A stretch of DNA of 64,000 nt from Escherichia coli. Its GTDB lineage: Bacteria; Pseudomonadota; Gammaproteobacteria; Enterobacterales; Enterobacteriaceae. Positions 1,067-1,092 of this stretch are shown one piece after another. Every line of letters starts with the position of its first letter. Position 1 is the stretch's first letter. Under the pieces are notes generated by a model, which had not been told where the DNA came from, searched no databases, and was given only the letters and a program-made list of their open reading frames with translations. The DNA lies in the NCBI RefSeq assembly GCF_003334815.1, contig NZ_QOWO01000024.1, one strand, 5' to 3'. Both the position numbers and the translations under genes were made by a program.

Positions 1067-1092
1067 TAACAGGGCAAGTTTCGCCCTGTTTT
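1067..1092 (+). terminator. Plus-strand-oriented hairpin + T5 between rbn and elaD
   Basis: acagggc-aagtttc-gccctgt followed by ttttt; orientation is opposite to both flanking genes. Confidence 0.3.

Follow-up and report, generated by a model that had tools for sequence, protein, structure and literature searches.

Genomic context of the rbn-elaD spacer

The window, meaning the whole stretch of DNA analysed (64,000 nucleotides of contig NZ_QOWO01000024.1, assembly GCF_003334815.1), represents Escherichia coli K-12, its bases 900-1130 being 100% identical to W3110 and EMG2. Window positions (w) were converted to the reference genome as MG1655 = 2382525 + (1108 - w), the minus strand of the window corresponding to the plus strand of MG1655. 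In the RefSeq annotation the coding sequence of rbn (RNase BN) occupies 1108-2025 on the minus strand, with the last base of its stop codon at 1108, and is followed on the same strand by the 5' part of elaD (114-920, start at 920); the initial annotation had likewise placed both neighbours of the hairpin on the minus strand. Past elaD, RefSeq annotates elaA, elaB and menF on the plus strand. The hairpin studied here lies at 1068-1090, at the end of the rbn mRNA and 147 nt upstream of the elaD start, and on the minus strand its stem begins 18 nt downstream of the rbn stop codon. The short interval from stop codon to stem (1091-1107, minus strand), which forms the start of the rbn 3' UTR, is AU-rich and reads CUCUGCUUAUUAUUAAA.

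The elaD part has a G+C content of 35-36% and is cut at 158/159 by an IS10-type element that fills window positions 1-158 and is 100% identical to ISVsa5/IS10 on R100 and many other plasmids. The end of the element, carrying the transposase C-terminus on the plus strand, sits in elaD and leaves a truncated ORF of 268 amino acids. This IS-elaD junction (158/159) was present in 0 of the 5426 complete E. coli genomes searched. Apart from its disruption by the IS in the window, elaD carries a frameshifted or pseudogene annotation in several of the few strains sampled (loci L086, L087, L090 and L091 of the comparison), and the frameshifts, pseudogenes and IS disruption together suggest that the gene is under weak selection. 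A search of the literature on elaD together with H-NS and Rho found no paper mentioning elaD.

Structure and significance of the hairpin

On the plus strand, positions 1068-1090 read AACAGGGC-AAGTTTC-GCCCTGTT, a perfect 8-bp stem with five G-C pairs and a 7-nt loop, joined by a T5 run at 1089-1093 that is the A5 tract immediately 5' of the stem on the rbn strand. The initial annotation, which described a 7-bp GC-rich stem followed by T5, was essentially right. The first two Ts of the run are at the same time the last two bases of the stem, leaving only TTT past the full stem; in an alternative plus-strand view, a 6-bp core (CAGGGC/GCCCTG) is followed by T5 and next by AATAAT. A consensus terminator scan of the window did not flag the site at 1068-1090, because only four of the eight bases after the maximal stem are T.

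The two RNAs fold with different stability. RNA of the plus strand gives -12.3 to -12.9 kcal/mol (z = -3.2), whereas the rbn-sense RNA transcribed from the minus strand, AACAGGGCGA-AAC-UUGCCCUGUU, forms 10 bp with a 3-nt loop at -14.6 kcal/mol (z = -5.3, equalled by 0 of 200 shuffles), the gain coming from a G.U and an A-U pair that narrow the loop to 3 nt.

Hairpins were counted across the 64-kb window with the criteria of perfect pairing, a stem of at least 8 bp, at least five G-C pairs and a loop of 3-8 nt, and compared with 100 dinucleotide shuffles. Eight were observed against 3.05 +/- 1.68 expected, and two had an adjoining T5 run against an expectation of 0.01. The hairpin at 1068-1090 is non-random and lies far above chance. 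No second copy of it was found in the window, and a search of Rfam returned no match even at E <= 10 beyond chance level.

The 3' end of the rbn mRNA

The primary 3' terminus of the rbn mRNA maps to 1060-1069 on the minus strand (peaks at MG1655 2382564-2382573, plus strand; PMC10687069, Supplementary Data 2, 3 and 4), and this end is thus already known, being present in a published 3'-end atlas (TRS). In the MG1655 RNA sequenced for the atlas itself, the terminus labelled 'rbn, Primary' spans 2382565-2382573 (plus strand) with its dominant position at 2382571 (window 1062), and in the atlas's re-analysis of a published dataset it spans 2382564-2382572 with its dominant position at 2382568 (window 1065) (PMC10687069). 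Adjusted p values were 6.6e-10, 1.1e-11 and 2.1e-5 in the re-analysed dataset and 1, 1.5e-4 and 4.2e-4 in the in-house libraries, where one of the three replicates is non-significant and the terminus holds rank 1385 (PMC10687069). The rbn RNA accordingly ends in ...GCCCUGUUAUC or ...AUCGCA, 3-6 nt past the stem. Supplementary Data 3 of the atlas prints the identical fold, ((((((((((...)))))))))), at -14.6 kcal/mol with a maximum U-tract of 2 (3 if non-consecutive), and Supplementary Data 4 gives an rbn 3' UTR of 47 nt (PMC10687069); the register of the printed sequences was compared with the thrL row and with the window and was consistent. This bears out the suggestion that the hairpin is a structural part of the rbn 3' UTR seen from the opposite strand, the primary rbn terminus lying just beyond the stem on the rbn strand.

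At 2382500-2382699 neither strand has a 3' end in the Term-seq list curated by Adams et al. (PMC7815308), and the rbn terminus is therefore weak and not dominant. TERMITe and SMRT-Cappable-seq likewise have no entry for the locus of the rbn hairpin.

On the rbn strand the stem is followed by AUCGCAAC, in which the longest U run is 2. The classical hairpin/T-tract score was applied to this strand and gave T-tract scores of 0.5-2.2 and values of d from -22 to -50; its formula reportedly comes from d'Aubenton Carafa in 1990. Since the tail lacks a U-tract, the structure is not a canonical intrinsic terminator, and this candidate was rejected for the rbn strand.

The C-rich stretch and probable Rho-dependent termination

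Directly after the stem on the rbn strand begins a C-rich, G-poor stretch (940-1067, minus strand) that is a candidate rut region. The first 40 nt past the stem hold 16 C against 5 G and the first 78 nt hold 24 C against 10 G, and the C/G ratio stays at about 2 or more in most 40-nt windows as far as about position 940 (one being at 1.3), compared with about 1 inside rbn. A Rho termination region on the rbn/elaD strand was reported at window 991 (MG1655 2382642, plus strand), 77 nt beyond the stem (Rho score 3.24, p = 5.1e-5; PMC7815308, Supplementary file 2). Upstream and downstream reads there number 57 and 31 in untreated cells versus 46 and 81 with bicyclomycin (PMC7815308), a call that is made over 800-nt windows with low read counts and does not localise the termination.

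Rho-terminated mRNAs of E. coli have precise steady-state 3' ends just past stable stem-loops that lack U-rich tails, according to Dar & Sorek (PMC6061677), whose model places rut sites just downstream and attributes trimming of the RNA up to the stem to PNPase and RNase II. The rbn end resembles this class in its stable stem-loop, in a steady-state 3' end a few nucleotides past it, in a tail without a U-rich tract, in the excess of C over G just downstream and in the bicyclomycin-sensitive region further on. It differs in the A5 tract just upstream of the rbn stem; tracts of this type are not typical of Rho-class ends (PMC6061677), and the A5 tract here counts against assignment to the class and needs a separate explanation. 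By analogy, then, the locus fits the known class of protective stem-loops that end Rho-terminated mRNAs, its dependence on Rho and exonucleases being predicted from that likeness.

Natural alleles and copy number

Of 4498 E. coli genome records, 3602 have an identical sequence over the 73 nt that include and surround the hairpin. The hairpin is single-copy in 4497 genomes (median of one place per genome), and all 120 copies recovered from metagenomes (120/120) have the same rbn-elaD context. Variant alleles, sampled down the frequency ranking, contained three stem substitutions, C27U, C32U and C43U in sense-strand numbering, each of which replaces a G-C pair by G.U in the sense RNA of rbn, whose fold persists at -13.6 to -14.4 versus -16.3 kcal/mol for the K-12 allele. 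In plus-strand RNA the same substitutions give A.C mismatches, and the fold falls to -10.5 to -11.3 versus -15.5 kcal/mol for K-12. A further allele, G33U, which occurs in complete genomes and in metagenomes, removes only the top pair that is specific to the sense strand. Among the 120 metagenome contigs, 110 carry the K-12 type, five carry G33U and five carry C32U, and none favours the plus strand. The asymmetry of the stem substitutions (3/3; sign test, p = 0.125) is supportive of use on the sense strand and not decisive.

Replacement of the rbn 3' flank

The elaD gene is absent from E. coli Nissle (phylogroup B2) and E. albertii, both of which have rbn and yfbK in convergent orientation. 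K-12 and Nissle can be aligned as far as 3 nt beyond the rbn stop codon and then again from a point about 27 nt into yfbK, the sequences in between being different; these breakpoints therefore place the hairpin at the rbn-proximal edge of the elaD-specific segment, which measures about 1.5 kb and has a G+C content of 36% versus 51% for rbn. The interval after rbn has been replaced repeatedly (loci L084, L005, L004 and L006-L037 of the comparison), most E. coli having elaD there. Nissle/B2 and a cryptic Escherichia clade have an unrelated spacer of 120 nt after rbn, and E. albertii has a third spacer. The idea that the T5 side is the fossil terminator of a convergent yfbK was rejected, because the spacers are unrelated and homology to the arrangement without elaD reaches only 3 nt beyond the rbn stop codon.

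All of the alternative rbn 3' flanks, in other strains and genera, carry a stable hairpin soon after the stop codon, and the one in Enterobacter sp. R1, Siccibacter and E. pulveris is a textbook terminator with A-tract, stem and U-tract. With a hairpin supplied by every flank, rbn would seem to require a 3' structure irrespective of the gene next to it.

In some E. coli an IS1 element lies directly after rbn, and elaD and part of yfbK are deleted. Its junctions correspond to window 1095/1096 and 1083/1084 (strains RS571 and STS63-2-E), one of which removes the whole hairpin while the other cuts it in the middle, making these strains natural hairpin knock-outs for the rbn mRNA. A strain of this kind, IS1-flanked and without elaD, was considered as the ancestral empty site and rejected as a secondary deletion.

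Citrobacter, Enterobacter, Kosakonia and other genera have a CheV-type gene (CheW plus receiver) downstream of rbn, and the GCCGATAAC motif that precedes this gene resembles a sigma-28 -10 element. A sigma-28 promoter was also considered for K-12, from GCGATAAC overlapping the stem on the plus strand, and dropped, there being no matching -35 element. The genomic-SELEX study of Shimada et al. (2017) with sigma-28 holoenzyme lists a peak of moderate intensity (peak 62, intensity 12.5, old MG1655 coordinate 2379830) that is assigned inside rbn and not to the spacer, a second reason for dropping the promoter; the peak lies inside K-12 rbn even though the CheV-type gene found after rbn in related genera has been lost from E. 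coli.

Transcription towards the hairpin on the plus strand

A second Rho termination region lies antisense to elaD at window 869 on the plus strand (MG1655 2382764, minus strand; PMC7815308, Supplementary file 2), about 200 nt upstream of the hairpin on that strand. Upstream and downstream reads number 274 and 21 in untreated cells versus 503 and 139 with bicyclomycin (Rho score 3.6, p = 7.6e-9) (PMC7815308). A plus-strand transcript running toward the T5 side therefore exists. In the present strain, transcription leaving the IS10-type element would also go antisense across elaD and could reach the T5 side of the hairpin.

An orphan plus-strand terminator, as proposed by the initial annotation, has no direct support in the published maps: no plus-strand 3' end lies within about 100 nt of the hairpin among the TRS matches listed or in the Term-seq list of Adams et al. 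The further proposal that the hairpin ends an antisense or small plus-strand transcript is possible insofar as antisense elaD RNA heads to the T5 run, for which no 3' end is present among the matches listed. When the published 3'-end maps were consulted over the hairpin, an end was found on the rbn strand, and no end on the MG1655 minus strand at 23824xx-23825xx was present among the matches listed. Expression on the plus strand at the hairpin locus is very low in the TRS data. The classical score for the plus strand is negative for the longer stems (d = -15 and -3) and reaches +4 for the 6-bp core with T5.

Comparison with known systems

With canonical intrinsic terminators the hairpin has in common that it is GC-rich and of normal size and energy and that a T run adjoins it on the plus strand. 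It is unlike them in that the tail on the strand of the mapped end is AUCGCAAC, with its U runs of 2 at most, while the plus strand has only T5, partly within the stem, and no 3' end mapped there. Compared with bidirectional terminators between convergent genes, reportedly described by Ju et al. (2019), there is likewise one hairpin that could act on both strands, with transcription arriving from both sides (rbn sense and elaD antisense); however, rbn and elaD are co-directional, the T run is on one side and the 3' end on one strand, and assignment to this class was rejected on those grounds. As with the REP/BIME stabilisers of mRNA 3' ends, an extragenic palindrome is located at an mRNA 3' end, where it would block exonucleases. 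The rbn hairpin is unlike REP/BIME in being single-copy, belonging to no repeat family and having no Rfam match, and REP/BIME, any other repeat and any known RNA family were rejected on its single copy, its chance-level Rfam hits and its one metagenome context (120/120).

Interpretation

The hairpin probably forms the 3' terminus of the rbn (RNase BN) mRNA, an end that would be made by Rho-dependent termination and exonuclease trimming. From the directly observed fold, mapped 3' end, absence of a U-tract, excess of C over G and bicyclomycin-sensitive region downstream, we infer the following order of events. Polymerase leaving rbn would transcribe the stem-loop, which is expected to be a poor terminator alone because it has no U-tract, and would next transcribe the C-rich, G-poor stretch, onto which Rho would load. 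Rho would then halt transcription tens of nucleotides further on, within the rbn-elaD spacer, and 3'-to-5' exonucleases would trim the tail back to the hairpin, giving a defined and protected end 3-6 nt past the stem. Weak intrinsic termination at UUAU may account for a minor fraction of the ends. Acting together, the hairpin and the Rho site would in addition reduce the amount of rbn transcription that runs on into AT-rich elaD.

The main competing question is whether the same hairpin serves the other strand as well, T5 and hairpin intrinsically stopping the elaD-derived antisense RNA before it enters rbn, besides ending the rbn mRNA. Such a role on two strands does not conflict with the preferred explanation, and the antisense RNA is documented (274 reads in the 800 nt upstream of MG1655 2382764, minus strand). 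A T5 run at the foot of a given hairpin is itself unlikely (1-2% by a rough estimate, and jointly 0.01 expected per window), the plus-strand RNA nearing the hairpin is G-rich (C/G 0.3-0.5) and so poor for Rho loading, and the classical score is borderline positive for the 6-bp core. With bicyclomycin the ratio of downstream to upstream reads is only 139/503 = 0.28, which may reflect a limit on read-through other than Rho; the hairpin lies about 226 nt into the 800-nt window, and 226/800 = 0.28 is a compatible match, not evidence. Against these points, no plus-strand 3' end near the hairpin is present among the matches listed from the two maps, Rho already cuts the antisense signal by about 92% further upstream (274 to 21 reads), the score is negative for the longer stems, and common natural alleles weaken the plus-strand hairpin by 4-5 kcal/mol while sparing the sense version. 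A function on both strands is accordingly judged possible and on the unlikely side. A broader proposal, that the element is a two-faced insulator bordering a foreign AT-rich gene, with a Rho-coupled exonuclease block on one face and an antisense intrinsic backstop on the other, the element having been acquired with the elaD segment, is somewhat more doubtful still. Little probability attaches to a terminator of an unannotated plus-strand small RNA spanning about 921-1093 and antisense to the elaD leader: the orientation of hairpin and T5 is right and the spacer offers room for up to about 170 nt, but the spacer contains no promoter-like site on the plus strand, Rfam gives no match at E <= 10, no 3' end on the MG1655 minus strand is found among the published matches listed and the natural alleles weaken the plus-strand hairpin. 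The small RNA was rejected on the missing promoter-like site and mapped end and is regarded as very improbable.

The hairpin could also be a passenger, a terminator or other structure left over from the previous context of the elaD segment, which marks the end of rbn incidentally; its position within the elaD-specific segment, at the very edge of it in the comparison of K-12 with Nissle, and the unrelated spacers of E. albertii and the cryptic Escherichia clade are in keeping with such an origin. An origin of this kind is, however, compatible with a present function, and a 3' end is mapped at the hairpin, the observed substitutions keep the sense-strand pairing and the other spacer types also supply a hairpin, suggesting a need of rbn. 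Nor was any other context found, given one copy in each of 4497 genomes and 120 of 120 metagenome copies at rbn-elaD, and the passenger reading is considered improbable. A chance palindrome without function would draw on the roughly three perfect 8-bp hairpins per 64 kb that arise in shuffles, but the combination with T5 is expected only 0.01 times per window, a stop codon lies 18 nt before the start of the stem, a 3' end falls at the foot of the hairpin in two analyses and the surrounding 73 nt are conserved without change in the 3602 of 4498 records; it can hardly be entertained.

Under the preferred explanation, a stem-loop ending the rbn mRNA, the hairpin is an ordinary gene-end structure whose significance extends little beyond annotation. 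The locus illustrates that a T run on the "wrong" strand can misdirect terminator calls made from sequence only, and that G.U pairs tell on which strand a hairpin is at work. The rbn hairpin coincides with the exact edge of a segment that was replaced horizontally, and natural strains either lack it or carry strand-discriminating alleles; a function on two strands is therefore cheap to test.

Other hairpins

Further hairpins were noted near the locus and elsewhere in the window. The 3' end of elaB (2925-2963, plus strand) has a 12-bp hairpin in which 2925-2936 pairs with 2944-2955 around a loop of U7, and the primary elaB 3' terminus of TRS is at MG1655 2380670 (window 2963), the stem again being without a U-tract after it. 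A perfect TATAAT at 2956-2961 adjoins the elaB stem, about 30 nt upstream of the menF start (2990). Outside the window, the elaD-yfbK spacer of K-12 (2740-2809 of locus L001) lies between convergent genes and contains a perfect 15-bp palindrome, TTCGACCAGTCAGCA-AATA-TGCTGACTGGTCGAA, which is likely a shared terminator of both. The window scan returned two more strong perfect hairpins, at 56300-56333 and 26881-26910, in one of which A and T runs flank a 13-bp stem (AAAACACCCGATA...TATCGGGTGTTTT), the second having an 11-bp stem and a T5 run on the minus strand; both are presumably ordinary gene-end terminators.
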